Positions 14,439 to 46,134 of a stretch of DNA of 64,000 nt are shown here, piece after piece. Below the pieces are notes generated by a model that saw only the letters and a list, made by a program, of their open reading frames with translations, was not told the DNA's origin and searched no databases. This DNA comes from Patescibacteria group bacterium (GTDB lineage Bacteria > Patescibacteriota > Minisyncoccia > Phycocordibacterales > WO2-35-19), in NCBI GenBank assembly GCA_038064735.1, contig JBBTSI010000011.1:1768-65767 (forward strand), in the 5' to 3' direction. A program made the position numbers and the translations under genes. The first letter of the stretch is position 1, and every line of letters begins with the position of its first letter.

Positions 14439-14474
14439 AAACGGCTCAACGAGTAATCCCGTTGAGCCGTTTTA
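14439..14474 (+). terminator. Intrinsic terminator. Its stem is identical to the hairpin at 46102..46134.
   Basis: aacggctcaacg-agtaatc-cgttgagccgtt followed by TTTATT. Confidence 0.55.
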
Positions 14475-16893: not shown

Positions 16894-17790
16894 ATGAAAA
16901 AAACTATAGTCGCGGTCATTGTGGTAATAGCAATTGTCGGTGCCTATTTTTTGGTTAATAATTTATTAAGTAAAAATACTGTAACAACAAGTTTAACTCC
17001 ATCAACCAACGACCAAAATACAACAGCAACCACTACCGAAACTCAAAATCCAGCCCAGTCAGTCATCGGCAAATCCGTTGAAAACCGAGATATAATCGCT
17101 TACAACTATGGTACCGGTGAAAAGAAAATTTTGTTCGTTGGTGGCATCCATGGCGGTTATGAATGGAACACATCAAAAGTTGCTTATGAACTAATAAATT
17201 ATTTGGAAGCAAATCCATCTTTTGTTCCCAATAATATCAAGGTAACAGTTATCCCCGTTTTAAATCCTGACGGTCTTTATAAAATTGTCGGCACCACTAC
17301 TGGAAATTTCACTTCAGCAAACGTCTCATCCAATACAGTACCCGGCCGCTTTAACGCAAACAATGTCGACCTTAACCGCAACTTTGATTGCGATTGGCAA
17401 ACTAATGCTACTTGGCAAAATAAAACTGTCAGTGGAGGAGACTCGGTCTTTTCCGAACCGGAAAGTTTAGCTATAAAAAATTATATAGAAACAAACAAAC
17501 CAAGTGCAGTCGTCGTCTGGTATAGTTCAGCTGGTGGGGTTTACTCTTCAAGTTGTCACAACGGTGTCTCTCCGGAAACCAACACTCTTACCAAAACTTA
17601 TGCGAGTGCTTCTGGTTATCCTGCCTATCAAAGTTTTGATTTCTACGCCACAACAGGCGACATGGTAAACTGGCTAGCCAAAATCAATATCCCAGCGGTG
17701 AGTGTACTTTTGACTAATCATACCGATACTGAATGGACTAAAAACCAAAAAGGCGTCGAGGCCCTGATTAACTATTATTTCAACAAATAA
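16894..17790 (+). CDS. M14-family zinc carboxypeptidase (gamma-D-Glu-DAP peptidase-like), membrane-anchored.
   Basis: N-terminal TM segment, then VGGIHGGYEWNT ... RFNANNVDLNRNFDCDW ... FSEPES. Start was chosen at the internal MKKTIVAVIVV. Confidence 0.7.
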   Translation: MKKTIVAVIVVIAIVGAYFLVNNLLSKNTVTTSLTPSTNDQNTTATTTETQNPAQSVIGKSVENRDIIAYNYGTGEKKILFVGGIHGGYEWNTSKVAYELINYLEANPSFVPNNIKVTVIPVLNPDGLYKIVGTTTGNFTSANVSSNTVPGRFNANNVDLNRNFDCDWQTNATWQNKTVSGGDSVFSEPESLAIKNYIETNKPSAVVVWYSSAGGVYSSSCHNGVSPETNTLTKTYASASGYPAYQSFDFYATTGDMVNWLAKINIPAVSVLLTNHTDTEWTKNQKGVEALINYYFNK

Positions 17791-18665
17791 TGCAGCCTAA
17801 TTTCAAGAAGCCGGCGATAATAATTGCTGTGGTTATTGTTGTGTTTTTAGCATCTTTGTTTTGGGCTATAAGCCACAGACAACCAGAAACACCACCAGTA
17901 ATCGAAGCTCCGAAAGAAGTGGTTTATAAAGTCATCGGTAACTCTGTGGAAGGACGTAAAATTGAAAGTTACACTTATGGGGAAGGGCAGAAGCATCTGG
18001 TATTAGTCGGCGGTGTCCACGGAGGTTACGAATGGAACAGCATAATGCTCTCTTACCGAATGATGGATTACTTGAATAAAAATCAAGATACAATCCCGAA
18101 CAATCTGACAGTCACCATAATACCTAACGTCAATCCTGACGGCCTTTTCAAAGTAGTAGGTAAAGAAGGCCAGTTTGTCGTCGCCGATGTTTCTACTAGT
18201 ACCAAAATACTTTCAGCCGGCCGTTTCAATGCAAACGAGGTTGACCTCAACCGCAACTTTGATTGCAAATGGAAACCGAAAAGTACCTGGCAATCAAAAA
18301 CAGTGAGTGCCGGCTCAGAAGCTTTTTCCGAACCGGAAGCTCTGGCTTTTAAAAATTTTATTTCAGAAAACAATCCGACCGCTGTCATATTTTTCCACAG
18401 CCAGTCGGGCAGTGTTTACGCTTCACAATGCAAAGACGGCATCCTTCCGGAAACTCTGAGTATCATGGATGTTTATGCAAAAGCGGCAGGTTATAAACCA
18501 GTCAAAACATTTGATGCTTATGCCACTTCTGGTGCTGCTGATGACTGGTTAGCCTCCATCAAAATCCCCGCTATCACAGTAGAACTCAAAACTCACGAAA
18601 CCGTAGAGTGGGAACAAAACCTTACCGGTATCAAAGCTCTTTTTGCTTATTTCAACCAAAAATAA
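17790..18665 (+). CDS. M14-family zinc carboxypeptidase, a tandem paralog.
   Basis: VGGVHGGYEWNS ... RFNANEVDLNRNFDCKW ... FSEPEA. Overlaps the upstream gene by 1 nt (TAATG). Confidence 0.7.
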   Translation: MQPNFKKPAIIIAVVIVVFLASLFWAISHRQPETPPVIEAPKEVVYKVIGNSVEGRKIESYTYGEGQKHLVLVGGVHGGYEWNSIMLSYRMMDYLNKNQDTIPNNLTVTIIPNVNPDGLFKVVGKEGQFVVADVSTSTKILSAGRFNANEVDLNRNFDCKWKPKSTWQSKTVSAGSEAFSEPEALAFKNFISENNPTAVIFFHSQSGSVYASQCKDGILPETLSIMDVYAKAAGYKPVKTFDAYATSGAADDWLASIKIPAITVELKTHETVEWEQNLTGIKALFAYFNQK

Positions 18666-24006: not shown

Positions 24007-26685
24007 ATGGCAAAGAACAAAAAGTATGTCTATGCGTTTGAAGAAGGTGATAAGAGCATGAAAGAAATTTTGGGTGGTAAGGGCGCCAATCTGGCTGAAA
24101 TGAAAAACTTAGGAATAAACGTGCCTCCGGGATTTACTGTAAGCACCGAAGTTTGTGATATTTATTACAAAAATAAAAAAACTCTGCCAAACGAAATCAA
24201 AAAACAAATAGACACAAAACTTTTTGATTTACAAAAAAAGATGGACAAAAAATTGGGAGACGCTAGCGACCCACTCCTAGTCTCAGTCCGTTCCGGCGCC
24301 GCTTCCTCAATGCCAGGCATGATGGATACTATTTTAAACTTAGGCCTCAACGACAAATCTGTCGTAGGGCTCAGTCAAAAAACCGGTAACTCCCGATTTG
24401 CTTGGGATTCATACCGCCGTTTAATCCAAATGTTTGGTTCGGTAGTCATGGAAATGGAACACTCCGATTTTGAGCATATTCTTGAAAATGTGAAAGACAC
24501 TGTCGGGGCAAAATATGACACTGATCTGACCACTGAAAACTTGCAAGAAATCGTCACCAAATACAAAGAAAAAATAAAAAAAGTGAAAGGCATTGATTTC
24601 CCCCAAGACCCAATCAAACAACTATATGCAGCGATGAATGCAGTCTTTAATTCTTGGAATAATTACCGAGCCATAAGATACCGTGAAATAAATAATATCA
24701 AAGGCCTCATCGGCACGGCAGTCAACATCCAAGCGATGGTCTTCGGCAATTTGGGAGAGACTTCCGGCACGGGAGTTTGCTTCACTAGGAACCCTTCAAC
24801 CGGCGAAGCTAAATTTTACGGCGAATACCTCATGAATGCTCAAGGTGAAGATGTAGTCGCTGGTATTAGGACACCTCTACCAGTATCATCGCTTCAAAAA
24901 TCGAATCCAAAAATTTACAAAGAGTTAGTGACGATCTGCAACAAAGTCGAAAAGCATTATCGCGATATGCAAGATATGGAATTTACCATTCAAGACGGCA
25001 AGCTTTACATCTTACAAGCAAGATCCGGCAAAAGGACAGCGACAGCAGCCGTCAGAATCGCGGTGGAAATGGTAGCCGAAAAACTCATCACCAAAGAAGA
25101 AGCTATTTTGCGCATTGATCCAAATCAACTCAATCAACTTTTGCACAAACAATTTGACCTCATCGCTCTAAACCGAGCCGAAGTGGTCGCTTTGGGTTTA
25201 CCAGCTTCACCAGGAGCCGCTGTCGGAGAAATAGTTTTTACTGCCAGTGATGCCTTTGAAAAAACCAAAGCAGGTTTGGACGTCATTTTAGTCCGTACAG
25301 AGACTTCTCCGGAAGATATTGATGGTATGCACAGCGCTAAAGGAATACTCACCGCTAGAGGTGGTATGACGAGTCACGCCGCAGTGGTAGCAAGGGGTAT
25401 GGGTACATGTTGTGTAGCTGGATGTTCAGATTTGATTATTGATGAAAAAACAAAAAAATTAACTATCAAAGAAAAAGGTATTACTTTGAAAGAAGGGGAT
25501 TTTATTTCTCTTGATGGTTCTCTTGGAAAAGTTTATGTTGGAAAGATTGCGACCGTAGATCCGAAACTTTCAGGCAACTTCGGCAAACTAATGTCTTGGG
25601 CAGACAGTGTGAGAAAAATAGGGGTGAGGACCAACGCCGACACTCCGACTGATGCCAGTGTAGCCAGATCATTTGGCGCTGAGGGTATCGGACTTTGCCG
25701 AACTGAACATATGTTCTTTGAAGGCAATCGTATCAAAGCAGTGAGGGAAATGATTTTGGCAGGGGATTTGGAAAGCAGGAAAAAAGCGCTAAACAAACTT
25801 TTGCCTTATCAAAAAGAAGATTTCGTAGAACTATTCCGCACTATGGACGGATTCCCGGTGACAGTGCGTTTGCTCGATCCACCACTTCATGAATTTTTAC
25901 CAAAAGAGAAAAAAGATATTGAAGAACTCGCTCGTGAAATGAAAGTAGAAGTTAAAACTCTTACAGATAAAATTTCAGATTTGCACGAATTCAATCCGAT
26001 GCTCGGACACCGCGGTTGCAGACTCGCTATCACTTTCCCCGAGATTTACGATATGCAAGTGACTGCTATAGTTGAAGCTATTATAGAAGTCTATAAAGGT
26101 AAAAGTAAATCCTCCTCCGCTAAAGCTACGGCGGGACAAAGAAAAATTGCACCAGAAATAATGATTCCTCTCGTCGCTACCACCAAAGAATTTGAAATCA
26201 TTAAAAACCGAATTGTAGAAATCGTAGAGAGCAAATTGAAATCAGCCAAAATCAAAGTCGCTTACAAAGTCGGTACGATGATTGAAGTGCCAAGAGCAGC
26301 ACTCGTCGCTGACAAAATCGTAGAAGCTGGAGCAGAATTTTTCTCTTTCGGTACCAATGACCTTACTCAAATGGGTGTCGGACTCTCACGCGACGACTCT
26401 GGTAAATTCCTCAAAGAATATGTGAAGCAAAATATTTTCGACCAAGATCCTTTTGAAGTTTTGGACCAAGAAGGTGTAGGTGAACTCATCCGTATTGCTA
26501 TCAAAAAAGGTAGGGGAGTTAAAAAAGATTTGAAAGTAGGTATTTGTGGGGAACATGGAGGCGAACCCAAGACTGTGGAATTTTGCCACAACGAAGGGTT
26601 TAACTACGTTTCTTGCTCACCATTCCGAGTACCTATCGCCCGTCTAGCCGCCGCTCAAGCCGCCATCAAGAACAAGAAGAAATAA
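24007..26685 (+). CDS. ppdK: Pyruvate, phosphate dikinase.
   Basis: Full-length match including GGKGANLAEM, the phospho-His domain GGMTSHAAVVARGMG, and the PEP-utilising C-terminus GICGEHGGEP. Start set at MAKNKKYVY. Confidence 0.9.
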   Translation: MAKNKKYVYAFEEGDKSMKEILGGKGANLAEMKNLGINVPPGFTVSTEVCDIYYKNKKTLPNEIKKQIDTKLFDLQKKMDKKLGDASDPLLVSVRSGAASSMPGMMDTILNLGLNDKSVVGLSQKTGNSRFAWDSYRRLIQMFGSVVMEMEHSDFEHILENVKDTVGAKYDTDLTTENLQEIVTKYKEKIKKVKGIDFPQDPIKQLYAAMNAVFNSWNNYRAIRYREINNIKGLIGTAVNIQAMVFGNLGETSGTGVCFTRNPSTGEAKFYGEYLMNAQGEDVVAGIRTPLPVSSLQKSNPKIYKELVTICNKVEKHYRDMQDMEFTIQDGKLYILQARSGKRTATAAVRIAVEMVAEKLITKEEAILRIDPNQLNQLLHKQFDLIALNRAEVVALGLPASPGAAVGEIVFTASDAFEKTKAGLDVILVRTETSPEDIDGMHSAKGILTARGGMTSHAAVVARGMGTCCVAGCSDLIIDEKTKKLTIKEKGITLKEGDFISLDGSLGKVYVGKIATVDPKLSGNFGKLMSWADSVRKIGVRTNADTPTDASVARSFGAEGIGLCRTEHMFFEGNRIKAVREMILAGDLESRKKALNKLLPYQKEDFVELFRTMDGFPVTVRLLDPPLHEFLPKEKKDIEELAREMKVEVKTLTDKISDLHEFNPMLGHRGCRLAITFPEIYDMQVTAIVEAIIEVYKGKSKSSSAKATAGQRKIAPEIMIPLVATTKEFEIIKNRIVEIVESKLKSAKIKVAYKVGTMIEVPRAALVADKIVEAGAEFFSFGTNDLTQMGVGLSRDDSGKFLKEYVKQNIFDQDPFEVLDQEGVGELIRIAIKKGRGVKKDLKVGICGEHGGEPKTVEFCHNEGFNYVSCSPFRVPIARLAAAQAAIKNKKK

Positions 26686-28674: not shown

Positions 28675-29427
28675 CTATTTCATCAAAGCTTGGACACCGT
28701 CCCAGAAGCCGTTGCTGTCGGTATCACGAAGGTTTGGATTGGTTTTGACACAAGTAGAAGATTCATAAGGAGCGAGGCATTGTTCTTCGTAGTTAGCGAT
28801 ACCATCTTTATCTGTATCTTCAGTATAGGTGGTCAGTTTGCTTATGAGTTCCTCTCTAGTTGTTGAAGCTTTTTCGAGGACAGACCCTTTGAAAGGACTG
28901 AAACTCAAAAGCACCGAATTGCCGGCGTTATTTTTCACGAAAAATAAAATAGCCCGATTCCTACCGATAGCGGTATCATCTTCTTGAATTTTAAAATCAG
29001 TTGCCAAAATAGTTTGCTTGCTATCGCTCCAGATATTTGTGAAATCTTCTTTTTTCAAAACACTGCCATAAGCATAGGCCATATCCATTCTGTTTTTGCA
29101 TTCATCAGTAGCTACAGCACTTTCGCAGACAACATTAACTTTATAAACGGTTTGTTTAACACCGTCCAAATTTTTGTCCAAGTTGTAACCCAAATATTTT
29201 TGAAAGACTGTCCAAGCAGTATCTTTTGAATCGTCGGAAAATGGCAAAGTTTGTTTAGGCAAAATAGAAGTATTTTCTATTTCTTTTTCAACAGTTGTAG
29301 TCGCTACGTTTTCTAGCGGAATTTCTAATTTTGGCGCAGAAGCAACATTTTTTAAAACAAAAAACAAAACTGCAAAAATTGCCAATACTACTGCGATTAT
29401 TAAAATTATTTTTCTGTTATTTTCCAT
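28675..29427 (-). CDS. Membrane-anchored secreted protein with thrombospondin-type-3-like Ca-binding repeats.
   Basis: N-terminal TM segment. C-terminal DTDKDGIANYEE and DTDSNGFWDG are DxDxDG motifs. Confidence 0.5.
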   Translation of the reverse strand: MENNRKIILIIAVVLAIFAVLFFVLKNVASAPKLEIPLENVATTTVEKEIENTSILPKQTLPFSDDSKDTAWTVFQKYLGYNLDKNLDGVKQTVYKVNVVCESAVATDECKNRMDMAYAYGSVLKKEDFTNIWSDSKQTILATDFKIQEDDTAIGRNRAILFFVKNNAGNSVLLSFSPFKGSVLEKASTTREELISKLTTYTEDTDKDGIANYEEQCLAPYESSTCVKTNPNLRDTDSNGFWDGVQALMK

Positions 29428-30469
29428 ATTTTTTATTATATTCTTTTGCTAATTCTTTTATAAATCCCGGGCCGTTGTAAATCATACCGGTTATAAGTTG
29501 TATCAAATCCGAACCAGCTTCAAATTTTGCTTTCATATCTTCTGCTGACATCACCCCACCACAGCCAATAATAGTAAATCTTTTGCCATAAGCTTCTCTA
29601 GTTTTTTTAATAAGTTCATTTGATATTTCAATACAAGGTTTGCCCGAAAGGCCCCCGCAATAATCTTCTGGGGCTTCATCCCTGTAATCCAAATCGGCAT
29701 AATTTTTATTTAAATTTCCGATAACGACACCTTTTATCATCTCAAATTTTTCAATAATCTTGAGAAGTTCGTCAAACTCTGGCCACTCCAGATTGATAGG
29801 CATCTTTATATAAACCGGCCTACTGCATTTTATTTCTGAAATTTTGGATAGCAATTTTTGAAGCAATTCCGTATTAGCAAAAGTTTCTCCACCAAAAGCG
29901 TTGGGACAAGAAATATTGAAAGTGTAATAATCACCGACATTTTCTTCATTCAATTTTTTGAAACTATAAAAATAATCTTCAATGCCCTCAAAATTATCCG
30001 AAGCCTTTTCATCATTGGTGCGAGCAATGGAAACACCCACTACAAAGCCGTCCTGTTTTTTATATTTTTTTAATCTATCAATCACTTTGTTCACCCCATC
30101 ATTACGCAAACCTTTGTTGACGATGAGACTCTGTGATTTCGACAACCTTCTCAAACGTGGTTTTTCATTACCTTCAGAAGGTCTCGCTGTAACAGAACCG
30201 ACTTCCACCCCGCCAAAAGAAATTTCGGGCAAAATATTCAAAAGCCGACCATTATAATCAAATCCAGCTGCGAGCAAAAAAGGGGATTTGAAAGTCAAAC
30301 CATCAACCGTCTTAGAAATATCCGAGCCTTTATAACCATAGGCGATAAATACGAGTTTTTTTAAAATATAACTCTTTCCGATAAATTCACCCAAGGAAAC
30401 GAACAAATTATGGACTTTTTCTGGGTCAAATTTGAAAAGTATGGGTTTTAAGATGTTTTTGTAGAACAT
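29417..30469 (-). CDS. pyrD: Dihydroorotate dehydrogenase (quinone), class 2.
   Basis: LAAGFDYNGRL, GGVEVGSVTARPSEGNEKPRLRRL, SCPNAFG, and GGLSGKPC ... IIGCGGVMSAEDMKAKFEAGSDLIQLITGMIYNGPGFIKEL. Confidence 0.85.
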   Translation of the reverse strand: MFYKNILKPILFKFDPEKVHNLFVSLGEFIGKSYILKKLVFIAYGYKGSDISKTVDGLTFKSPFLLAAGFDYNGRLLNILPEISFGGVEVGSVTARPSEGNEKPRLRRLSKSQSLIVNKGLRNDGVNKVIDRLKKYKKQDGFVVGVSIARTNDEKASDNFEGIEDYFYSFKKLNEENVGDYYTFNISCPNAFGGETFANTELLQKLLSKISEIKCSRPVYIKMPINLEWPEFDELLKIIEKFEMIKGVVIGNLNKNYADLDYRDEAPEDYCGGLSGKPCIEISNELIKKTREAYGKRFTIIGCGGVMSAEDMKAKFEAGSDLIQLITGMIYNGPGFIKELAKEYNKKYGK

Positions 30470-30488
30470 AACACCATAATATCATAAA

Positions 30489-30555
30489 ATAACTCACCCC
30501 CAATCTAGACAGAAAGATAACTCACCCCAACCCCTCTCTTACAACAAGAGAGGGG
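30489..30555. repeat. Leader hairpin repeat, copy A: two ATAACTCACCCC boxes plus a perfect 10-bp stem-loop cccctctctt-acaac-aagagagggg.
   Basis: Boxes at 30489-30501 and 30517-30529, hairpin at 30531-30555. Relative to minus-strand pyrD the unit reads hairpin, then GGGGTGAGTTAT, then 19 nt, then ATG. Confidence 0.7.
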
Positions 30556-30593
30556 CTTCCGCCATATACGAGTTTAAAGTTATAATAGAGCTA

Positions 30594-31007
30594 ATGCCAT
30601 TACATTTCTATAATAATCAAAACCAAAAAGAAAGAAGAAGAGAACTTCGAAAAAATCAAACTGAAGCAGAAAAACTCTTATGGCAAAAAATTCGTGGAAG
30701 AAAAATAAATAATTTAAAATTTCATCGTCAATTCAGCATTGGTCCATATATTGTAGATTTTTTCTGCCCACAAATTAGACTGGCCGTAGAATTAGATGGC
30801 GAGCAACATAAGGATTCTGTGGTTTACGACAAAGAAAGAGGAAGTTTTCTGAAAGATAAAGATATTGTGACTATAAGATTTTGGAATTATGAAGTGCTAA
30901 ATGATTTGGAAAAGGTTTTGGAAAGAATCAAAAAAGAAATCGAAAATAACCCCCTTAATCCCCCTTACAACAAAGGGGAAATCGGAGGAAACCCTCTCTT
31001 GTTGTAA
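30594..31007 (+). CDS. DUF559 (Vsr-like, very-short-patch-repair endonuclease fold) protein.
   Basis: ELRKNQTEAEKLLWQKIRGRK ... YIVDFFCPQIRLAVELDGEQH. The C-terminal 15 codons run into repeat copy B. Confidence 0.7.
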   Translation: MPLHFYNNQNQKERRRELRKNQTEAEKLLWQKIRGRKINNLKFHRQFSIGPYIVDFFCPQIRLAVELDGEQHKDSVVYDKERGSFLKDKDIVTIRFWNYEVLNDLEKVLERIKKEIENNPLNPPYNKGEIGGNPLLL

Positions 31008-31027
31008 GAGATGGTAGGGTGAGTTAT
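30958..31027. repeat. Leader hairpin repeat, copy B (inverted relative to A), plus a degenerate mini-hairpin ccccttacaacaaagggg.
   Basis: ccctctctt-gttgt-aagagatgg at 30992-31014, then TAGGGTGAGTTAT at 31015-31027, which is 9 nt before the S51 ATG. Confidence 0.7.
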
Positions 31028-31036
31028 TATAAGAAT

Positions 31037-31690
31037 ATGAAATTATTTCTAACATCAAGTGGTCTAACAAATAAATCAATAATAAAAGCACTTTTTGATT
31101 TAATTGGTAAGAAACCGGAAGATACTTCTTTGGTTTTTATTCCCACTGCTTCAAATGTAGAAACAGGAGATAAAGACTGGTTTATAAATGACTTGATAAA
31201 TATTAAAAAGCAAAACTTTAAAACTATAAGCATTGCGGATATTTCCGCTGTTTCGGAAGATATCTGGAAACCACAACTAGAAGAAGCTGATGTTTTGTTT
31301 TTTGAAGGAGGAAATACATATCACCTCATGAGATGGATAAACGAGTCTGGTCTCGCCAAACTTTTGCCGGAACTACTAAAGACAAAAGTGTACGTCGGAG
31401 TAAGTGCGGGGAGTATGGTAACTGGCCCGGATTTGGCTTTAAGATTGTCCCAAGTAATATATGGTGAGGATATGGAAGAGAAAAATATGGATGGATTAGG
31501 TTTTGTTAATTTTTATTTTTTACCACACTTAAACTCACCTTATTTCCCTGCCAGAATGGAAAAAAATGCAAAAAAAGTCGCAGATGAAATATCGAAAAAG
31601 ATTTATTTTCTTGACGACCAAAGTGCATTGAAAATTGAGAATAATAAAATTGAAGTTATAAGCGAAGGGAAGTATTTAGAATATAATTAA
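31037..31690 (+). CDS. Peptidase S51 family (dipeptidase E / cyanophycinase-like class I glutamine-amidotransferase fold).
   Basis: MKLFLTSSG ... VLFFEGGNTYHLM ... VYVGVSAGSM places the Ser nucleophile in the GxSxG context. Confidence 0.6.
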   Translation: MKLFLTSSGLTNKSIIKALFDLIGKKPEDTSLVFIPTASNVETGDKDWFINDLINIKKQNFKTISIADISAVSEDIWKPQLEEADVLFFEGGNTYHLMRWINESGLAKLLPELLKTKVYVGVSAGSMVTGPDLALRLSQVIYGEDMEEKNMDGLGFVNFYFLPHLNSPYFPARMEKNAKKVADEISKKIYFLDDQSALKIENNKIEVISEGKYLEYN

Positions 31691-31711
31691 AAAATCTAAA
31701 AGCTCAGCGCT

Positions 31712-31751
31712 CCCTTCTCTTGTTGTAAGAGAAGGGAAGGGGATGAGTTAT
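31712..31751. repeat. Leader hairpin repeat, copy C.
   Basis: cccttctctt-gttgt-aagagaaggg at 31712-31736, then GGGGATGAGTTAT at 31739-31751, which is 3 nt before the ATG at 31755. Confidence 0.7.
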
Positions 31752-31754
31752 TCC

Positions 31755-32354
31755 ATGAATAAAATAATTTCAAAACTAAATACCCCTCACAAAGTTCAGG
31801 ATTTTTTGGACACAATGCCTTTCAATTTTGAAAAAGAAGGTGAGACTTGCTGGCCACCTTTAAAGGTATTGAAAGAAAAAAGTGCCCACTGTTTCGAAGG
31901 GGCAGTTTTAGCTTGTTTTTGTTTAGAACAAAATGGTATTGAAAATTATCTGATGGATTTGAAAGTCAAAAGCATAAAGAAAGACAGCGACCACACACTT
32001 TGCCTTTTCAAAGTAAATAAACATTGGGGTGCTATTTCAAAAACCAATCATTCCGTTTTACGCTGGCGCGACCCAATTTATAAAACTCCCCGCGAACTAG
32101 CCATGTCTTTCTATCATGAATATTTTTTAGATAGTAACGGCGAAAAAACTTTAAAATCATTTTCCAAACCATTTGATATTTGGAAAAAATTTGGCAAAGC
32201 TTGGACCGACAAAGAGGATAATATATACAAAATGACAGTAGCTCTTGATAATTCACCACATATTGAATTTGTACCAAAAAATAATGCCAAATTTGTGAGA
32301 AATGCTGGTAAAACAGAAATCAGGGGAGCATCGATCACAGAGTGGAAAAAATAG
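31755..32354 (+). CDS. Hypothetical protein with a possible Cys-His papain- or transglutaminase-like core.
   Basis: SAHCFEGAVLAC ... DHTLCLFKVNKHWGAI. The fold assignment is tentative. Confidence 0.4.
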   Translation: MNKIISKLNTPHKVQDFLDTMPFNFEKEGETCWPPLKVLKEKSAHCFEGAVLACFCLEQNGIENYLMDLKVKSIKKDSDHTLCLFKVNKHWGAISKTNHSVLRWRDPIYKTPRELAMSFYHEYFLDSNGEKTLKSFSKPFDIWKKFGKAWTDKEDNIYKMTVALDNSPHIEFVPKNNAKFVRNAGKTEIRGASITEWKK

Positions 32355-35384: not shown

Positions 35385-37526
35385 ATGTTTAGCGATAGAA
35401 AATTTAAAATTAAAAGAGATTTTGAGCCAGCAGGCGACCAACCGCAAGCGATTGAAAAGCTTGTAAATGGTATCAAAACAGGTCTGAAACATCAGACTCT
35501 TTTAGGTGTAACTGGTTCTGGTAAAACCTTCACTGTCGCCAATGTCATAAATGAAATTCAAAAGCCGACTTTGGTCATTGCTCACAACAAAACTTTGGCT
35601 GCCCAGCTCGCCCAAGAGTACAGAGAGTTTTTTCCTCAAAATGCGGTTCATTATTTCGTCTCTTACTACGACTACTATCAACCAGAAGCTTATATGCCAA
35701 TTTCGGATACTTATATAGAGAAAGAAGCGATGATAAATGAAGAGATTGAAAGACTGCGTCATGCTTCCACTCAAGCACTACTTACCCGTAAAGATGTCAT
35801 TATTGTGGCTTCAGTTTCTTGTATTTATGGTCTAGGTTCTCCGATTGAATATGAAAAAGTAAATATGAAAATTGCAAAAGGTGAAAAAATCTCTCGAGCA
35901 GAATTCGTCCGCAAACTTATTGACATTCATTTTGAACGTACCATAGCCGACCTCTCTCCGGGGCAATTCAGAGCCATCGGCAATAAAGTTGAAATTATGC
36001 CCGTTTCGGAAAAAGCTATTTATGAAATCAGTATCGCAGACGGCAAAATTGAAAAAATATTGAAAATAGACGCGATTACCAGAAGTATTTTGGAAGAAGT
36101 GGAAGTATTTTTCCTTTTCCCCGCCAAACATTTCATTTCTACTAAAAAACAAAACGAAAAAGCTTTCAAAACTATCAAAGCCGAGCTCGCACTGCAACTG
36201 AAGAAATTTCAAAAAGAAGGCAAACTTTTGGAAGAAGAACGGCTCAAACGCCGTACCAGTTATGACTTGGCTCTCATCCGCGAGATAGGATATTGCAACG
36301 GTATTGAAAACTATTCCAGACATTTTTCGGGCAAAAAACCTGGTGAAGCACCTGATACTTTACTCTCATATTTTCCCAAAGATTTCTTGACTATCATAGA
36401 TGAGTCCCACGTTTCTGTACCACAAATCGGAGCGATGTATTCCGGAGACGCTTCGCGTAAACAAGCACTGGTAGATTATGGTTTTCGTTTACCAAGTGCC
36501 AAAGATAACCGGCCACTTAAATTTGAAGAATTTGAAGAAAGGGTTGGTCAAGTTATTTATACCAGCGCCACTCCAAGCCATTATGAAGCAGAACACAGTG
36601 AGCAAGTCGTGGAGCAAGTCATCAGACCAACTGGTTTAGTTGATCCAATTGTTGAAGTAAGACCTATTACGGAAAGGAAGATTAGTTCTTCTTCGGCACA
36701 TGTTTCTGAATGCACGGATATTTTCTTGCTAGAAAATTCCTCGTGCTCGGCTCAGTCAGCCTCGCAAGGCATTCATAAACATATACCCTCGAAGAACTTT
36801 TCTGGGCATTACCCTGGTCAAATCGCGGACTTCATAAACGAAGCGGAAAAAAATATAAAAGCTGGTGGCAGAGTCATCGCCACTACGCTGACTAAAAAAA
36901 TGGCCGAAGATTTGAGCGAATACTTGAAAGAAAAAGGTGTCAAAGCTGAATACTTGCACAGTGATATTAAAACCATTGAACGAATTGAAATTTTGACCAA
37001 CTTACGCAAAGGCGAGTTTGATTGTTTAGTTGGAGTCAACCTTTTGCGAGAAGGTCTAGACTTACCTGAAGTAACACTCATCGGGATTTTGGACGCTGAC
37101 AAAGAAGGCTTCCTACGAAGCGACACTTCGCTTATTCAAATCATCGGCCGTGCCGCGCGAAATGTAGATGGCAAAGTTATTTTGTACGCAGACCGGATGA
37201 CCGGTTCAATGGAAAGAGCAATAAGCGAAACTAGCCGCAGACGCGTCAAACAAATCGCTTACAATAAAAAGCACGGTATTACTCCCAAAACTATTATCAA
37301 AAAAATTCAAGACATCACTGACCAACTCAGAAGTGATCATGATAAAGCAGTAGGGGAACTTATCAAAATAGATAAGAATATTTTGATAAAAGAACCTAAA
37401 AAATTAAAGAAACTTATTTCTCAGAAAGAAAAACAAATGGAAGGTGCTGTCAAAATCCTCGACTTTGAAACCGCCGCTCTTTTGCGTGATGAAATTTTGG
37501 AATTACAGAAAATTGGGAAAGTGTGA
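35385..37526 (+). CDS. uvrB: Excinuclease ABC subunit B, carrying a 48-codon in-frame insertion.
   Basis: GDQPQAIEKL, GVTGSGKTFT, helicase motifs, beta-hairpin YYDYYQPEAY, and the C-terminal UVR domain. Confidence 0.9.
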   Translation: MFSDRKFKIKRDFEPAGDQPQAIEKLVNGIKTGLKHQTLLGVTGSGKTFTVANVINEIQKPTLVIAHNKTLAAQLAQEYREFFPQNAVHYFVSYYDYYQPEAYMPISDTYIEKEAMINEEIERLRHASTQALLTRKDVIIVASVSCIYGLGSPIEYEKVNMKIAKGEKISRAEFVRKLIDIHFERTIADLSPGQFRAIGNKVEIMPVSEKAIYEISIADGKIEKILKIDAITRSILEEVEVFFLFPAKHFISTKKQNEKAFKTIKAELALQLKKFQKEGKLLEEERLKRRTSYDLALIREIGYCNGIENYSRHFSGKKPGEAPDTLLSYFPKDFLTIIDESHVSVPQIGAMYSGDASRKQALVDYGFRLPSAKDNRPLKFEEFEERVGQVIYTSATPSHYEAEHSEQVVEQVIRPTGLVDPIVEVRPITERKISSSSAHVSECTDIFLLENSSCSAQSASQGIHKHIPSKNFSGHYPGQIADFINEAEKNIKAGGRVIATTLTKKMAEDLSEYLKEKGVKAEYLHSDIKTIERIEILTNLRKGEFDCLVGVNLLREGLDLPEVTLIGILDADKEGFLRSDTSLIQIIGRAARNVDGKVILYADRMTGSMERAISETSRRRVKQIAYNKKHGITPKTIIKKIQDITDQLRSDHDKAVGELIKIDKNILIKEPKKLKKLISQKEKQMEGAVKILDFETAALLRDEILELQKIGKV
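36672..36815. repeat. In-frame palindromic insertion element (144 nt) within uvrB.
   Basis: Positions 36712-36770 are identical to 40672-40730 in uvrC. The 3' end GAAGAACTTTTCTGGGCA matches the right inverted end of the mnmA element. Excising it restores the canonical UvrB spacing between VEVRPIT and GQIADF. Confidence 0.8.
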
Positions 37527-37603: not shown

Positions 37604-40270
37604 ATGGTTAAAAAAGAAACAACAAAAGAAGATGGAAAATTAATCGTCCGAGGGGCGAGGACACACAACCTTAAGAATATTACAGTTGAGATGCCTCGCA
37701 ATAAGATGATTGCTTTCACGGGACTTTCCGGCTCAGGCAAGTCTTCTTTGGCATTTGATACTATTTTTGCCGAAGGGCAAAGGCGCTATGTGGAGTCGCT
37801 TTCATCTTATGCTCGCCAATTTTTGCGCCAAATGCAAAAACCCGATGTAGATGAAATCGTGGGGCTCAGTCCGGCCATTTCTATTGATCAAAAATCTCGC
37901 TCAAATAATCCACGTTCAACAGTAGCTACTATCACTGAAATATACGATTACCTACGTATACTTTATGCCAGAGTAGGCCACCCGCATTGTTTGGTTTGCG
38001 GTGATGAAATCAAAAAACTTTCAAACGAAGAGATCAAAAATTTTATTTCGGAAAGAATTTCCGAAATTAAAATAAAAAGCGGAAAAAATTCTAATAAAAT
38101 TCAATTGCCGGTTTATGTAGAAATTTTCGCGCCTATCGTGCGTGGCAGGAAAGGCGAATACTATCAATTACTTTATGATCTGCTCGGTAAGGGCTACACT
38201 CATGTTCTTATAGATGGGAAAAAGAAAGCTTTGCGCGAGCAAATTATTTTAACGAAAACCAAAAGACACAATATCGACGTCTTGGTAGACAGTATCAGTA
38301 TGCTCGACTTCATCGGGGATCAAAAAAGCGCCGAAGAAAGGTTGTCGGAAGATTTGGAAAAAGCGCTTGAAGAATCTGAAGGCATGGTCAAAATAATGTT
38401 TAGAGATATGGCGCTCGAAAAAAATAAAGATTATGTGCCAGAAGAAATTTTTATGTCCAATAAACTTTCCTGCCCGAAAGACGGCTATTCATATCCGGAA
38501 GTTGAACCGCGCCTTTTTTCTTTCAACTCACCATATGGCGCTTGCCCTGAATGTAACGGCCTTGGCACTCGCCATTTCTTCGGCGAGGAATCTTGTCCGG
38601 TCTGTAACGGCGCTAGACTCCGACCAGAAGCTTTGCATGTGACTCTTGGCAAGTCGCCTTCGTCAAAGACTTCGGCGGACCAAGGACAAAACATCGTAGA
38701 CCTCACATCAATGTCTATCAAAGACGTTTATGATTTCTTTATTGAACTCAAACTTACCGAAAGGGAAAAAAATATTTCCAAAGTGGTGATGAAAGAAATT
38801 GAATCAAGACTGGAGTTCATGATAAACGTCGGCATTGACTACCTCTCACTTGACCGCAGAGCCCACACTCTCTCGGGTGGTGAAGCTCAGCGCATCCGCC
38901 TAGCCAGCCAACTCGGCTCAGGACTAGTCGGCGCTCTTTATGTGCTTGATGAGCCAACCATCGGCCTCCATTCCCGTGACAATGACCGCTTGGTCAAAAC
39001 TTTGCTCACGCTCCGTGACCTCGGCAATACTATAATAGTGGTGGAACACGACGAAGATACTATCTTTGCTTCGGACTATATCGTTGATATTGGACCAAAG
39101 GCAGGCGTCCATGGCGGTGAAATCGTAGTCTCCGGATATTTGGATGAGCTTCTCACTGCTAAGCAAAACAAATCCGGTTCCGTAACTTTAGATTATTTGC
39201 GTGGAGACAATGTGATAGAAATTCCGGATAAAAGGAGAGGACAAGACAAAGGTTCGCTGCAAATCCGCGGAGGCAAAGTTTTCAATATTAAAAATATGAA
39301 TGTAGATGTACCGCTTGGCAAACTGGTAGCTGTAACCGGTGTTTCCGGTTCGGGCAAATCTTCTTTCGTTTACGAAATTTTGCACAAAAATTTGCAGGCG
39401 CGTTTTGAACGCAAATACCGCAGTGCACAAACTTTCAATTGTGCGTCTTTCACAGGTACAGAATATCTGGGCCGAGCCATTTTGATTGATCAGTCACCGA
39501 TAGGGCGTACGCCGAGGTCCAACCCCGCTACTTATACAGGAAGTTGGACTTTCATCCGCGAACTTTTCGCTGAGACAGCGGAAGCAAGAGCGCGTGGTTG
39601 GAAGGCCAGTCGATTTTCCTTCAACGTAGCAGGCGGGCGCTGTGAAGTTTGCGGTGGTAACGGCGAAATAGAAGTAGAAATGCATTTTTTACCGACCGTT
39701 TATGTGCCTTGCGATGTTTGCCGTGGCAAAAGATTTATGAAAGAAACTTTGGAAGTGAAATACAAAAAGAAAAATATTTACGAAATTTTGGAAATGACAG
39801 TTGAGGAAGCGCTAACCTTTTTTGAAGATATCCCTGCAGTTTATGACAGACTCAAGACGCTCAATGAAGTGGGTCTGGGTTATTTGAAACTCGGACAATC
39901 AGCCACCACCCTTTCCGGTGGGGAAGCACAAAGAGTGAAAATTTCATCGGAGCTTTATCGTCCGCACCTGCAAAAAACTATTTATCTACTTGATGAGCCG
40001 ACCATCGGTCTGCATTATGAAGATGTCAAAAAACTGATAGAAATTTTGCAAAAATTAGTAAACAAGGGAAACACAGTAGTGGTCATTGAACACAATATGG
40101 ATATCATCAAATCCTGCGATTATGTTTTGGATATTGGTCCCGAAGGCGGCGACCTTGGCGGTAACCTCGTCGCCAAAGGCACTCCCGAAGAAATCGCCAA
40201 CAACTCCAAATCTCACACCGGCAAGTATTTAAAGAAAGCATTGAAACAATATGCAGCACATAAAAAATAA
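37604..40270 (+). CDS. uvrA: Excinuclease ABC subunit A (888 aa); the insertion domain appears to be missing.
   Basis: Two ABC modules ([17 protein letters not shown] x2) and Zn modules. CPECNGLG and CPVCNG are only 9 residues apart, against about 125 in E. coli. Confidence 0.9.
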
Positions 40271-41585
40271 AATATCAAAATTGCCGGATGCGCCGGGGGT
40301 GTATTTTTTTCTTCGGGCGCCGAAGCCTAGCGAAGGAGGCAAACCTAAGATTCTTTATATTGGCAAAGCGACTTCGCTAAGAAGTAGGGTGAAGAGTTAT
40401 TTCAATGGAAGAATTGAAGAAACTCGAGGACCGCTGATTTCCAAAATGCTCAGCGAATTTACTGATATTAAATTCCAAAAAACCGATTCGGTTTTGGAAG
40501 CGCTCATTTTGGAAGCTAACCTCATCAAAAAGCACCAGCCCGAAGCCAACACTGACGAAAAAGACGACAAAAGTTTTAATTATGTAGTTATCACTAAAGA
40601 AGATTGGCCGAGAGTTTTAGTTATGCGAGAGAAAGAACTTCGAACTTTTTTTTCACCACATTCTTCGAAAAGCACGGATATTTTCTTGCTAGAAAATTCC
40701 TCGTGCTCGGCTCAGTCAGCCTCGCAAGGCTTTTCTCAGAACGATGGTTCAAAAAAGTTTTCAATCTCTAAAACTTTCGGACCATTTACAAACGGCGCAC
40801 AGCTCAAAGAAGCGATGAAAATCGTCCGCAAGATTTTCCCATTTAGGGATAAATGTGAAATAGGGCAAAAAAGAGCATGTTTCAATCGCCAAATCGGACT
40901 TTGTTCTGGAGTTTGTACTGGTGAAATATCCAAAAAAGATTACGGAAAGCAAATCAAAAATATTGTTTTGTTTTTTGAGGGTAAGAAAAAAGCTTTGATA
41001 AAAAATTTGGAAAAGCAGATGAAAGCATTCTCTAATTCGCGCGAATATGAGAATGCGGGAAAAATAAAAAGGCAGATTTTTGCCCTTTATCATATCCAAG
41101 ATGTCTCACTGATAAAAAGTGAAAATATAATAAATCTAAATTCAAACCAAACATTCAGAATTGAAAGCTACGATATAGCACACCTCTCGGGCACTAATGT
41201 AGTAGGAGCAATGACTGTGGTAGAAAATGGAGAAATTAAAAAAACAGATTACCGCAAATTCAAAATCAGAAGTGCGACAATCGACGACACCAAAGCCCTC
41301 TCTGAAGTTTTAGCTCGTAGATTAAATCATTCCGAATGGCCGATGCCTGATTTAATAGTAGTCGATGGGGGAGAAGCTCAAAAACGAGCCGTAGAAAAAG
41401 TTTTAAAAATCAATTCAAAAAACATTCCGGTCGTCTCTGTCGTTAAAGACGAAAGACATAAACCAAAAGATATTTTAGGAGATAAAAAATGGCTAAAGCA
41501 GGAAACCGAAATACTTCTAGCTAATGCCGAAGCCCACCGCTTTGCCATAAGCTTCCACAGGAATCTCCGTCGAAAGTTGTCTTAA
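40251..41585 (+). CDS. uvrC: Excinuclease ABC subunit C (444 aa), lacking the (HhH)2 tail and carrying an in-frame repeat insertion.
   Basis: GIY-YIG GVYFF ... ILYIGKA, the UVR domain, and an RNase-H-like endonuclease domain. Overlaps the uvrA end by 20 nt. Confidence 0.85.
   Translation: MQHIKNKISKLPDAPGVYFFLRAPKPSEGGKPKILYIGKATSLRSRVKSYFNGRIEETRGPLISKMLSEFTDIKFQKTDSVLEALILEANLIKKHQPEANTDEKDDKSFNYVVITKEDWPRVLVMREKELRTFFSPHSSKSTDIFLLENSSCSAQSASQGFSQNDGSKKFSISKTFGPFTNGAQLKEAMKIVRKIFPFRDKCEIGQKRACFNRQIGLCSGVCTGEISKKDYGKQIKNIVLFFEGKKKALIKNLEKQMKAFSNSREYENAGKIKRQIFALYHIQDVSLIKSENIINLNSNQTFRIESYDIAHLSGTNVVGAMTVVENGEIKKTDYRKFKIRSATIDDTKALSEVLARRLNHSEWPMPDLIVVDGGEAQKRAVEKVLKINSKNIPVVSVVKDERHKPKDILGDKKWLKQETEILLANAEAHRFAISFHRNLRRKLS
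40656..40740. repeat. In-frame palindromic insertion element within uvrC.
   Basis: A 59-nt core identical to the uvrB copy, with ends CGAAAAGC and GCTTTTCT. It encodes PHSSKSTDIFLLENSSCSAQSASQG in the variable linker after the GIY-YIG domain. Confidence 0.75.
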
Positions 41586-44040: not shown

Positions 44041-45045
44041 ATGTCATTAAGTATAGGAATCGTCGGTTTGCCAAACGTGGGGAAATCCACACTCTTTAAC
44101 GCACTTACGAAAAAAAGCGTACCAGCGGAAAATTACCCATTTTGCACCATTGACCCATCAGTAGGTATTATCCCCGTGCCAGACGAAAGACTAGAACGGC
44201 TAAACGCGTTTAGCCGTTCGGCCAAAAAAATCCCCGCCGTAGTGGAATTCGTAGATATCGCCGGACTAGTGCGTGGCGCCTCAAAAGGGGAGGGTAAGGG
44301 CAACCAATTCCTCACAGCTATCAAAGAATGCGATGCTATCGCCGAGGTGGTGCGCGTTTTTGACGACCCGGAAGTTTTACATGTCGAAGGAAAAATTGAT
44401 CCGCTCTCGGATATTGAAACCATAAATCTTGAACTCATTTTGAAAGATATGGAGACGGTGACCAAGCGTCTCGGCAGTTTGGAAAAAGAAGTGAGGGCCG
44501 GAAAGAAAGAAGCTCTGCTTGAAAAAAGCGGTTTGGAGCAAATCTTCAAAGCTTTGGAAGCGGAAAAAATGGCCTCCTCTGTTTTCAACGAGCTGGACGA
44601 ATTCGAAAAACCTTTCGTGAAAAATTTGCAACTCCTGACTATGAAGCCGGTACTTTATGTTTTGAACACTTCCGAAGCTGGTGAAAACAAAGTTGATATA
44701 AAAGAAAGGATTCCTGGACCATACGTTGAAGTAGATCCCATTTTTGAAAAAGGCCTCACTGACCTCATCACCAAAGCTTACGAAACGCTCGACCTCATTA
44801 CTTACTTCACGACCGGCGAGGACGAAACTCGAGGTTGGACTATTCTGAGAGACTCCACTGCACCCGTCGCCGGCATGGCCATCCACACAGACTTCCGCGA
44901 CAAATTCATCCGCGCTGAAGTCATAGAATGGGACAAACTCCTATTAGCTGGCTCTTACGCCACCGCTCGTGAACGTGGCCTCCTCCGCACCGAAGGCAAA
45001 ACTTACATCGTCAAAGACGGGGATGTCATAGAATTCAAAATCTAA
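44041..45045 (+). CDS. ychF: Redox-regulated ATPase YchF (Obg-like).
   Basis: IGIVGLPNVGKSTLFNALT, and the C-terminal TGS domain TEGKTYIVKDGDVIEFKI. Confidence 0.85.
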   Translation: MSLSIGIVGLPNVGKSTLFNALTKKSVPAENYPFCTIDPSVGIIPVPDERLERLNAFSRSAKKIPAVVEFVDIAGLVRGASKGEGKGNQFLTAIKECDAIAEVVRVFDDPEVLHVEGKIDPLSDIETINLELILKDMETVTKRLGSLEKEVRAGKKEALLEKSGLEQIFKALEAEKMASSVFNELDEFEKPFVKNLQLLTMKPVLYVLNTSEAGENKVDIKERIPGPYVEVDPIFEKGLTDLITKAYETLDLITYFTTGEDETRGWTILRDSTAPVAGMAIHTDFRDKFIRAEVIEWDKLLLAGSYATARERGLLRTEGKTYIVKDGDVIEFKI

Positions 45046-46101: not shown

Positions 46102-46134
46102 AAACGGCTCAACGACAACTATCGTTGAGCCGTT
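46102..46134 (+). terminator. Terminator hairpin sharing an identical 12-bp stem with 14439..14474.
   Basis: aacggctcaacg-acaactat-cgttgagccgtt, then CGGGTTTTTGTTG. Confidence 0.5.

Follow-up and report, generated by a model that had tools for sequence, protein, structure and literature searches.

Palindromic repeat units of a triplex-type architecture bracket a DUF559 nuclease cassette in a patescibacterial genome

Introduction

In a stretch of 64,000 nucleotides from the genome of a Patescibacteria group bacterium (GenBank assembly GCA_038064735.1, contig JBBTSI010000011.1, positions 1,768 to 65,767; hereafter the window), three copies of a hairpin followed by a G-rich box, here called units A, B and C, stand close to the start codons of pyrD, of a gene for an S51 peptidase and of a hypothetical gene, and two of them bracket a gene for a small nuclease of the DUF559 family. 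A first-pass annotation, made from the sequence of the window, took the copies for a shared 5' leader and the DUF559 gene for a possible selfish insertion into it. What are these units, and what is their relation to the nuclease gene that two of them enclose? The analysis reported here makes it probable that they are mobile repeats of a triplex type that bracket a DUF559 cassette, unit B acting in addition as a promoter. The feature is an AT-adapted variant, in a genome of the Candidate Phyla Radiation (CPR), of a known kind of repeat, and not a new regulatory leader.

The known repeats in question go by the names BoxC, PIT (potential intrastrand triplex) and TM_ECO, which denote the same elements (Holder et al. 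2015, PMC4666352, citing the 2000 study of PIT elements by the Maher group and BoxC reports of the 1990s). They have been noted since the 1990s, in hundreds of genomes and at unstable loci, and neither a function nor an origin nor a mobility gene has come to light (PMC4666352).

Architecture of the repeat units

The three copies lie where the first-pass annotation had placed them (coordinates of all features are collected in table 1). They share an exact 17-mer core; the 15-mer CTCTTGTTGTAAGAG occurs three times in the window (at 30536, 30996 and 31717) against 0.2 expected, a number reached in none of 100 shuffled sequences, and in each copy the core is joined to a box GGG(G/A)TGAGTTAT. Each unit opens with a pyrimidine arm, from which a loop of 5 nt leads to a purine arm, and ends with a linker of 2-3 nt and a G-rich box that mirrors the purine arm; the stems of A, B and C measure 9-11 bp. 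Unit A, on the minus strand, consists of the pyrimidine arm CCCCTCTCTT, the loop GTTGT, the purine arm AAGAGAGGGG, the linker TT and the box GGGGTGAGTT(AT), that is, GGGGTGAGTTAT, and the box is predicted to be of the reverse-Hoogsteen type. Unit B reads CCCTCTCTT-GTTGT-AAGAGATGG-TA-GGGTGAGTTAT, with a single C.T mismatch in the stem, and unit C reads CCCTTCTCTT-GTTGT-AAGAGAAGGG-AA-GGGGATGAGTTAT or, in an alternative parse, TCCCTTCTCTT-gttgt-AAGAGAAGGGA-a-GGGGATGAGTTAT. What had been annotated as a degenerate mini-hairpin at 30961-30978 turned out to be part of a fourth, divergent unit on the minus strand, hp1' (TTCCCCTT-tgttgt-AAGGGGGA-tta-AGGGGGTT), which forms an inverted pair with unit B and whose AATAACCCCC-hairpin half also occurs, alone or together with a B-type unit, at the related loci L026, L076 and L021. 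These four, clustered at one locus, are the only units in the window. A further box without a hairpin, GGGGGTGAGTTAT, lies beside unit A and is, to judge by its sequence, the leftover of a decayed second unit; locus L157 has a half-decayed unit at the matching position. The box motif GGGKGAGTTAT by itself is a weak signal (four matches in the window, all at this locus, against 1.35 expected, a count reached in four of 100 shuffles), though a hairpin always precedes it.

The relation between box and stem proved to be a regular one. Over 78 copies the stem positions pair in 99.5% of cases, with compensatory changes in four of the five pairs that the search pattern left free. Read from the base of the stem, the box mirrors the purine arm, a G of the arm facing a G of the box and an A of the arm facing an A or a T. 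The covariation is three-way, C:G.G being found in 65 of the 78 copies and T:A.A in nine, with four exceptions; unit C carries the T:A.A variant. The run of G has the same length in arm and box in 52 of 73 copies. When the triplet rule (G.G, A.A or T.A) was applied by hand, it held at ten of ten positions in unit A, eight of nine in B, ten of ten in C and eight of eight in hp1', the value for C being 10/11 in the register chosen by the script and 10/10 with a linker AAG and a 10-nt arm (AAGAGAAGGG against GGGATGAGTT). A separate and diverse set, 147 hairpins standing beside distant DUF559 genes, obeys the same rule: at 90% or more of the arm positions it is satisfied by 48% of the hairpins, as against 6% once the boxes have been permuted between loci. 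Linkers of 3 nt are found in 69 of 106 hairpins from DUF559 flanks.

The antiparallel purine-motif triple helix is made up of G.G:C, A.A:T and T.A:T triplets. The units of the window thus display, as far as sequence can tell, the class II purine-motif intrastrand-triplex architecture of BoxC/PIT/TM_ECO in an AT-adapted form. A single strand of the Escherichia coli motif has been seen by circular dichroism and nuclear magnetic resonance to fold into a triplex, and purine-motif triplexes form in DNA and not in RNA (PMC4666352), so that a box obeying these rules speaks against its being part of an RNA leader. Two simpler relations of the box to the arm were also tried and rejected, since only 1% of units fit a Watson-Crick partner, and 5% a direct repeat, at 90% or more of positions.

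The DUF559 cassette

The inverted placement of units A and B around the DUF559 gene, already remarked upon in the first-pass annotation, recurs elsewhere. At locus L158, in another genome, a DUF559 gene lies between a pilin-like gene and ligA, and the homology with the window begins exactly at ATAACTCA and stops exactly at TGAGTTAT: identity is 25% in the left flank, rises to 88% in the left end (unit A), 74% in the leader, 79% in the DUF559 open reading frame (ORF) and 97% in the right end (unit B), and falls back to 46% in the right flank. Because homology is sharply limited at both units, the alignment identifies A and B as the left and right terminal inverted repeats of a discrete DUF559 cassette of about 510 bp (30517-31027). 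The same termini are found without the gene. Composites of about 85-95 nt made of two inverted units begin with ATAACTCAyCCC and end with GGGTGAGTTAT, as the cassette does, and their linker CTTTCCGAAA is similar to the first stretch of the cassette leader, CTTCCGCC. Terminal inverted repeats are thus common to the composites and a longer, gene-bearing cassette, which is one mark of miniature inverted-repeat transposable elements (MITEs), and one two-unit composite, in L076, occupies the orthologous site between the pilin-like gene and ligA that holds the cassette in L158, the flanks being strongly diverged. From these sequences the composites look like deletion derivatives of the cassette.

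The repeat sequence also enters the coding region. The DUF559 ORF runs through hp1' and ends with a TAA (31005-31007) inside the loop and 3' arm of unit B, and its residues 117-137 (about 20 codons, ENNPLNPPYNKGEIGGNPLLL), which lie past the Pfam match, are translated repeat, just as the first-pass annotation had it for the gene's 3' end. DUF559 homologues on other contigs have the same repeat-encoded tail, and in one an A-type unit is translated as an N-terminal extension. In the nuclease itself the conserved columns D..ExD..H..RFWN are intact, a family profile built from the window protein and 35 homologues matches PDB entry 3HRL (E=9e-33), and the ratio of nonsynonymous to synonymous substitution (dN/dS) is 0.05-0.13 for DUF559, with 0.11 for pyrD, values from which DUF559 is judged to be under purifying selection. 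The synonymous distance of the DUF559 gene is 0.87 to a copy in a different context and 1.4-2.5 (saturated) to syntenic copies.

The first-pass annotation had proposed a comparison of the pyrD-pepE locus in relatives lacking DUF559. At the more distant pyrD loci without DUF559 there is no unit 5' of pyrD, and it follows that copy A travels with DUF559 and not with pyrD.

DUF559 genes and repeat units in other bacteria

To see the association outside the window lineage, 80 DUF559 loci were taken from metagenomes by protein similarity alone (39-55% identity, with one partial match of 74%); their GC content spans 0.34-0.69. Beside these distant genes stand, for example, the units CCCCTCTTA-agg-TAAGAGGGG-tta-GGGGAGTTATG and CCCCTCTCCCG-caag-CGGGAGAGGGG-cc-GGGGGTGAGGGG, and the GC-rich DUF559 flanks of L127, L147 and L148 follow, as judged by eye, the same pattern of arm, loop and box. 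A hairpin-plus-box unit stands beside DUF559 at 43 of the 65 loci for which both flanks are available, compared with eight of 811 control windows. Counted by gene ends, a unit lies within 150 nt of the end in 77 of 143 cases for DUF559 (54%) and in seven of 185 for other ORFs on the same contigs (3.8%), a 14-fold difference. The units are statistically linked to DUF559. The boxes usually point towards the gene. At 18 of the 65 loci the box runs straight into the start codon (..GTTATG), and inspection by eye showed the stop TAA to lie within the reverse box at several.

Whole cassettes have also been found in frame inside other genes, their units translated as linkers. A DUF559 domain lies in methionyl-tRNA synthetase (MetRS) between the anticodon and tRNA-binding domains (L140, 593-3202), in leucyl-tRNA synthetase (LeuRS) ahead of the editing domain, a NUDIX domain also being present (L009, 182-3544), and inside the methyltransferase domain of an MmeI-like restriction-modification enzyme (L147, 2-2686). 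In E. coli K-12 (NC_000913.3, 1351040-1351830; L163) the DUF559 gene is ycjD, which ends in a degenerate hairpin and is followed on its 3' side by a duplicated fragment of its own 3' end and, about 170 nt downstream, by a canonical BoxC. The gene is present in 3377 of 5426 complete E. coli genomes. A simple empty site for ycjD was sought in E. coli and can be ruled out, as strains lacking the gene carry an island of efflux genes there; in other phylogroups ycjD is replaced by the eefRABCD island (PMC12817139).

In the searchable literature we found no paper that links DUF559 to repeats of the BoxC/PIT type. The nearest published report lists DUF559 genes as enriched among predicted inversion targets (PMC9881135), an enrichment that probably reflects the flanking inverted repeats.

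The same data bear on another explanation, according to which the repeats form an independent family (spread by other means, or host elements) and DUF559 is a free-standing homing endonuclease gene that targets a pair of units and would for that reason always stand between them. Vsr-like nucleases do include a homing family, EDxHD, with I-Bth0305I (PMC3424549, PMC9403480). In most bacteria the ORF just fills the gap between two inward-facing boxes, as the fused starts and the stops within reverse boxes indicate; gene-less inward-facing pairs occur at L003, L031, L034, L036, L057 and L070, the L076 composite sits where L158 holds the cassette, and most units have no DUF559 nearby. Such a parasite, however, would leave unexplained how single units enter ORFs, and would not account for the theme CCCTCT...AGAGGG nn GGGG(T)GAG being kept together with DUF559 over a wide range of GC content and probably of phyla. 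In the window lineage, moreover, the left unit points outward, and no recent presence/absence polymorphism was seen. We consider this explanation unlikely.

Dispersal of the units in Patescibacteria

Species-representative genomes were scanned for the pattern TCTCTTGTTGYAAGAGA-N4-12-TGAGTTAT. The unit is carried by 75 loci in 21 assemblies of Patescibacteria, with no more than eight strict copies per genome; the assemblies are labelled Ca. Zambryskibacteria, Paceibacterota, Patescibacteria group, 'Saccharibacteria' and, in one case, Spirochaetales. The contexts are mixed: units lie 5' of start codons, directly after stop codons, in C-terminal tails that arise by read-through (23 cases) and in frame in the middle of genes, and in nine cases a convergent ORF has its stop codon in the TAA of a reverse box ATAACTCA. 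A single unit of 39 nt amounts to 13 codons ('ITHPNPSLTTREG'). At least nine units are inserted in frame in genes for LigA, MetRS, TsaD, DprA, an RluA-like synthase, TruB, MiaA, a GH15-like enzyme and a membrane protein. The Pfam match is continuous over the insert in LigA (71-341), MetRS (150-386), TsaD (31-374) and the RluA-like enzyme (12-202), and in DprA the insert lies just past the match, ahead of the C-terminal region; the insert present in the LigA of L076 is missing from the LigA orthologue of L158. All these insertions into host genes are from related loci, translated repeat in the window being confined to the tail of DUF559.

It was also observed that a TruB-like ORF of L045 contains three in-frame inserts derived from repeats (ITHPNPLLQQERE, PSPEQGEGGGG and PPLNQGEGWVG), which represent at least two unit families.

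Given the mixed contexts and the in-frame insertions into essential genes, the units behave unlike a regulatory leader and like selfish palindromic DNA. The distribution of the sequences identifies them as dispersed selfish elements that have been mobile over evolutionary time.

The units might instead be REP-like (repetitive extragenic palindromic) elements of the host, their hairpins ending or stabilizing transcripts and supplying promoters, kept by selection for a structural role or for gene expression, with DUF559 hitch-hiking in repeat-rich, unstable intergenic DNA. Units do stand directly after stop codons at many loci, and a composite can fill precisely the space between one gene's stop codon and the -10 element of the next; the TM loci of E. 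coli are hot spots of rearrangement (PMC4666352), and ycjD lies in one (PMC12817139). Yet in-frame insertions into essential genes are not what host signals would look like, the hairpins have no T-run behind them, the ends of DUF559 genes are 14-fold enriched in units over other gene ends on the same contigs, and the ends of the cassette are precise and identical in two contexts. An explanation by host elements therefore appears quite improbable. Intrinsic terminators, considered as a separate candidate, were rejected owing to the missing T-run; a scan of 30300-31900 for terminators lists only a 5-bp stem at 30984-30997 and none of the unit hairpins.

Start codons and a putative promoter

Units fall into spacing classes of 33-37 nt, measured from TCTCTT to TTAT and set by the length of the linker. 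In the 33-nt class, to which unit B belongs, the box is followed at exactly 9 nt by the ATG of a long ORF in 15 of 24 units and at 10-11 nt in three more, whereas in the other classes an ATG is found at +9 in two of 54 (p=3e-8). The bias towards start codons that the first-pass annotation had read from the window is thus borne out in related genomes for one spacing class and fails for the rest. The tie depends on the length of an internal linker, which makes selection on promoter function likelier than a preference in the site of insertion. Indeed, in 33-nt units the loop and 3' arm supply TTGTAA, followed by a 17-bp spacer, TAT+nnT (the TAT belonging to the unit), 6 nt and the ATG; the -10 hexamer fits TAnnnT in 17 of 17 and is TATTAT in eight. 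Among 561 ORF starts, TAnnnT shows a peak at a gap of 6 nt before the ATG (89 against a background of about 20), and Shine-Dalgarno-like words are rare, so leaderless mRNAs seem, from these sequences, to be common in these Patescibacteria. The predicted promoter of unit B is listed by the promoter scan, and we lean, if only slightly, towards the view that unit B drives a leaderless mRNA of the S51 peptidase gene. A change of one to three bases in the linker would by this account turn a unit into a ready promoter for leaderless genes. Unit C (36-nt class; ATG at +3, and at +6 in L068) and unit A (35-nt class) are without the promoter geometry.

Inspection of the window and of loci L002-L076 showed many genes that lack a Shine-Dalgarno sequence and have a TATAAT-like hexamer whose end lies 6 nt before the ATG. 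The pyrD gene itself has a candidate leaderless promoter of this form (TATTAT-N6-ATG, hexamer at 30476-30481).

A shared cis-regulatory 5' leader, be it an RNA hairpin or a protein operator, would have pyrD, the S51 peptidase gene and the hypothetical gene co-regulated, and several facts agree with it: all three copies in the window are aimed at a start codon 3-19 nt away, as first reported, a dimeric regulator could recognize the palindrome, which in unit B overlaps the -35 element, and the link of the 33-nt class with start codons is strong. Box and ATG, however, are unequally far apart (19 nt for A, 9 nt for B and 3 nt for C), and units are found inside ORFs, at 3' ends and between genes that converge as well. 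The genes behind 33-nt units (for LeuRS, LigA, Ddl and others) are unrelated in function, and no unit is present at pyrD loci that lack DUF559. Box and stem covary as they would in a triplex made of DNA, of a type not formed in RNA (PMC4666352), and a search of the units against Rfam at permissive thresholds returned chance-level matches only, all far under the gathering scores. The distribution of the copies largely excludes a leader of this kind, which we regard as highly improbable.

Two other roles for the box were tried and discarded. As a Shine-Dalgarno sequence it is ruled out, distances of 3, 9 and 19 nt being incompatible with that function and such sequences being rarely used in these genomes. 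An in-frame GTG or ATG start within the box (MSY..) would be in frame in B and C and not in A, and the orthologues begin at the downstream ATG.

Comparison with known elements

Rickettsia palindromic elements (RPEs) are palindromic repeats of about 100-150 bp that lie in frame in protein-coding genes and are restricted to Rickettsia. The units described here likewise sit, translated, in frame in protein-coding genes, essential ones included; they differ in being only about 39 bp (13 codons) long, and no nuclease partner is, to our knowledge, known for RPEs. Correia elements have terminal inverted repeats, are placed between stop and start codons and carry an outward promoter. The composites of about 85-95 nt resemble them and other MITEs in their terminal inverted repeats, in lying between stop and start codons and in their outward promoter geometry, and differ in that neither a TA nor another target duplication is evident, in that half-elements are also dispersed and in that the parent element has no known transposase.

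With the REP elements and bacterial interspersed mosaic elements (BIMEs) that go together with the REP-associated tyrosine transposase (RAYT, TnpA_REP), the units have in common that they are short palindromes with a conserved flanking motif, occur singly and in inverted pairs, and enclose between inverted copies a nuclease gene of low copy number under purifying selection. Unlike REP sequences, they contain no GTAG, their flanking motif GGGGTGAGTTAT mirrors the stem, and the flanked gene encodes a PD-(D/E)XK nuclease of the DUF559 family and not an HUH Y1 transposase. One might hence suppose that an unseen transposase, for instance a Y1 enzyme of the RAYT or IS200 type acting on hairpin DNA, moves the units with DUF559 as passenger cargo, and the architecture of a hairpin with a short flanking motif, of singles and inverted pairs and of a flanked gene is indeed that of REP/BIME with RAYT (PMC3333891, PMC8266576). 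Neither the cassette nor the genes next to it in the window include a transposase-like gene, Y1 enzymes not having been looked for elsewhere in the genome or at the 8-kb loci; none was found near the E. coli elements in earlier work (PMC4666352), and it is DUF559 that is flanked at loci of GC content from 0.34 to 0.69. We hold such a transposase to be very unlikely.

The Vsr-like EDxHD homing endonucleases such as I-Bth0305I belong to the same PD-(D/E)XK group as DUF559 (PMC3424549). DUF559 differs from them here by having no intron or intein context and, in the window, no neighbouring gene for a cytosine methyltransferase.

It is BoxC/PIT/TM_ECO that the units match in architecture. The known kind is marked by a first loop of 3-6 nt, a stem of about 9 nt and a second loop of 1-6 nt. 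In both kinds a pyrimidine arm and a loop lead to a purine arm, behind which come a second loop, short and often TTA, and a G-rich third segment; both obey the triplet rule G.G:C, A.A:T, T.A:T, are multi-copy and dispersed with inverted pairs, and follow the theme CCCTCT..AGAGGG-TTA-GGG(T)GAGG. For TM_ECO the pattern is CCCTCNCCC-N3-6-GGGNGAGGG-N3-GGGNGAGGG, with TTA or CCG as second loop, inverted pairs have been noted, and the loci have been linked with rearrangements (PMC4666352). The differences are several. In the window the arms end AT-rich (..CTCTT/AAGAG.., box ..GAGTTAT), and CCCCTCTCTT-N5-AAGAGAGGGG-N2-GGGGTGAGTT fails the literal TM_ECO pattern, the GC-rich core being the same; the host is a CPR bacterium; units lie inside ORFs as well, whereas the copies of E. 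coli K-12 are reported to be always intergenic; one spacing variant has promoter geometry, whereas no promoter activity is reported in E. coli; and an association with DUF559 is absent from PMC4666352.

Possible mechanism and significance

How might the units and the cassette spread? DUF559 may cut at or beside units that are folded or paired, and repair of the break against other unit-bearing sites could then copy single units or the whole cassette, in a manner resembling homing or the RAYT-REP system. That DUF559 acts in this way on folded or paired units, break repair spreading units and cassettes, is by analogy with those systems a possible course to which we give a minority of the weight. 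Extended to bacteria at large, and equally tentative, is the proposal that DUF559 nucleases are the missing partner enzymes of BoxC/PIT repeats, recognizing folded DNA or pairs of units and driving their spread. Such a partnership would amount to a mobile element of a new kind, in which triplex-forming inverted repeats bound a PD-(D/E)XK nuclease gene, accompanied by MITE-like two-unit derivatives, solo units and in-frame inserts of units and whole cassettes in essential genes (MetRS, LeuRS, LigA).

Several observations weigh against the interpretation of the units as mobile triplex-type repeats that depend on DUF559, with unit B as a promoter. For some 88% of the strict units from related loci, the 8-kb locus contains no DUF559 gene. 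Binding or cutting of units by DUF559, and hence its causal role, is something that we infer. The cassette is old at the pyrD locus, with no recent movement there, as judged from its divergence: L162, L157 and L068 are syntenic with the window, and divergence from the syntenic copies is broadly in step for pyrD (67-68% identity), the hypothetical gene (69-71%) and, over its core domain, DUF559 (about 78%). The view of the DUF559 gene as a selfish insertion, put forward in the first-pass annotation, is upheld in a changed form: with A and B the gene makes up a discrete cassette that also occurs between other genes, and at this locus the cassette is old, syntenic and under purifying selection. 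A consistent target-site duplication was not found; the TA inside ATAAC/GTTAT may be one, and is inseparable from the inverted repeat. In the window lineage the upstream unit mostly points away from DUF559, whereas the boxes face the gene in most other bacteria. In E. coli, BoxC sequences found by megablast occupied two to six places in genomes with ycjD (39 rows, mostly four to six) and one place in 13 of 21 sampled rows for genomes without it, a correlation that tracks phylogroups, is confounded by them and is only a lead. As regards the triplex, the AT-rich ends may weaken it, and the stem of unit B is mismatched. Promoter-like matches in this AT-rich stretch, finally, are no commoner than in shuffled sequences (7 against 5.0), so that the support for a promoter in unit B comes from the regularity across loci, and the E. 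coli elements are reported to have neither promoter nor terminator activity and no mobility genes nearby (PMC4666352).

Were the link with DUF559 causal, it would explain the origin of BoxC/PIT repeats and give a role to a very large protein family, both testable in E. coli with ycjD and BoxC. Apart from this, the results extend the triplex-type repeat architecture, AT-adapted, to the ultra-small genomes of CPR bacteria, reveal units that behave as selfish DNA entering even essential genes in frame, and tie these units closely and broadly to the small nucleases of the DUF559 family, YcjD included. Of the features reported here, four were not met with in the literature that could be searched: the wide link with DUF559, the structure of cassette and derivatives, the in-frame insertions of units and cassettes into essential genes, and the promoter-forming spacing variant.

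Genes at the locus and other repeats in the window

The gene identities proposed in the first-pass annotation agree with the Pfam matches, the hypothetical gene having no family (table 1). At the orthologous loci L068, L157 and L162 no homologue of the S51 peptidase was found, DUF3977 taking its place in L157. A unit precedes the orthologue of the 199-aa hypothetical gene also in L068. This gene adjoins DUF559 or lies near it in four genomes (the window; L157, 934-1527; L068; L002, 5915-6499), the gene on the other side differing.

Table 1. Features of the locus, with positions in the window.
Feature	Position	Strand	Details
pyrD, dihydroorotate dehydrogenase	29417..30469	-	PF01180, E=3.6e-54; divergent neighbour of the cassette
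Orphan box GGGGGTGAGTTAT	30489-30501	-	19 nt 5' of the pyrD ATG, beside unit A
Unit A	30517-30555	-	hairpin 30531-30555, perfect 10-bp stem; linker and box 30517-30530
Cassette leader	30556..30593	+	TATAAT 30581-30586, 7 nt 5' of the DUF559 ATG
DUF559 ORF (Vsr-like PD-(D/E)XK nuclease)	30594..31007	+	PF04480, E=2.7e-34, residues 10-116 of 137
Unit hp1' (fourth, divergent)	30948-30980	-	
Unit B	30992-31027	+	hairpin 30992-31014, box 31017-31027; 33-nt spacing class
Predicted sigma-70-type promoter	31002..31036	+	-35 TTGTAA 31002-31007, 17-bp spacer, -10 TATTAT 31025-31030, 6 nt, ATG 31037
S51 peptidase (PepE-like)	31037..31690	+	PF03575, E=2.7e-33
Unit C	31711-31751	+	hairpin 31711-31737, box 31739-31751; solo, 36-nt class
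Hypothetical 199-aa gene	31755..32354	+	no Pfam/NCBIfam family

Other repeats were observed elsewhere in the window. A separate repeat of about 60-88 nt, GCACGGATATTTTCTTGCTAGAAAATTCCTCGTGCTCGGCTCAGTCAGCCTCGCAAGGC, occurs at 36686-36773 and 40646-40733, the two copies being 89% identical and in frame in two ORFs, one UvrB-like (35385-37526) and the other at 40251-41585, where it is translated as ..TDIFLLENSSCSAQSASQG..; it looks, from this placement, like another mobile insert tolerated in frame. A hairpin family AAACGGCTCAACG..CGTTGAGCCGTTT stands directly 3' of gene ends with A/T runs beside it (14439-14471 and 46102-46134, with a weaker copy at 44186-44218), has a similar hairpin in L074 and has the appearance of a bidirectional terminator. 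Members of an inverted-repeat family, GTCCCGAGAAGCTTTAGCGAAGTGGGATT, lie at 8610-8638, 48215-48243 and 26107-26145, and a similar string is present in another genome (L067). A tandem duplication, finally, has produced adjacent paralogues at 16894-17790 and 17790-18665, whose repeats D3 and D12 are 73-77% identical at a spacing of 875 nt.

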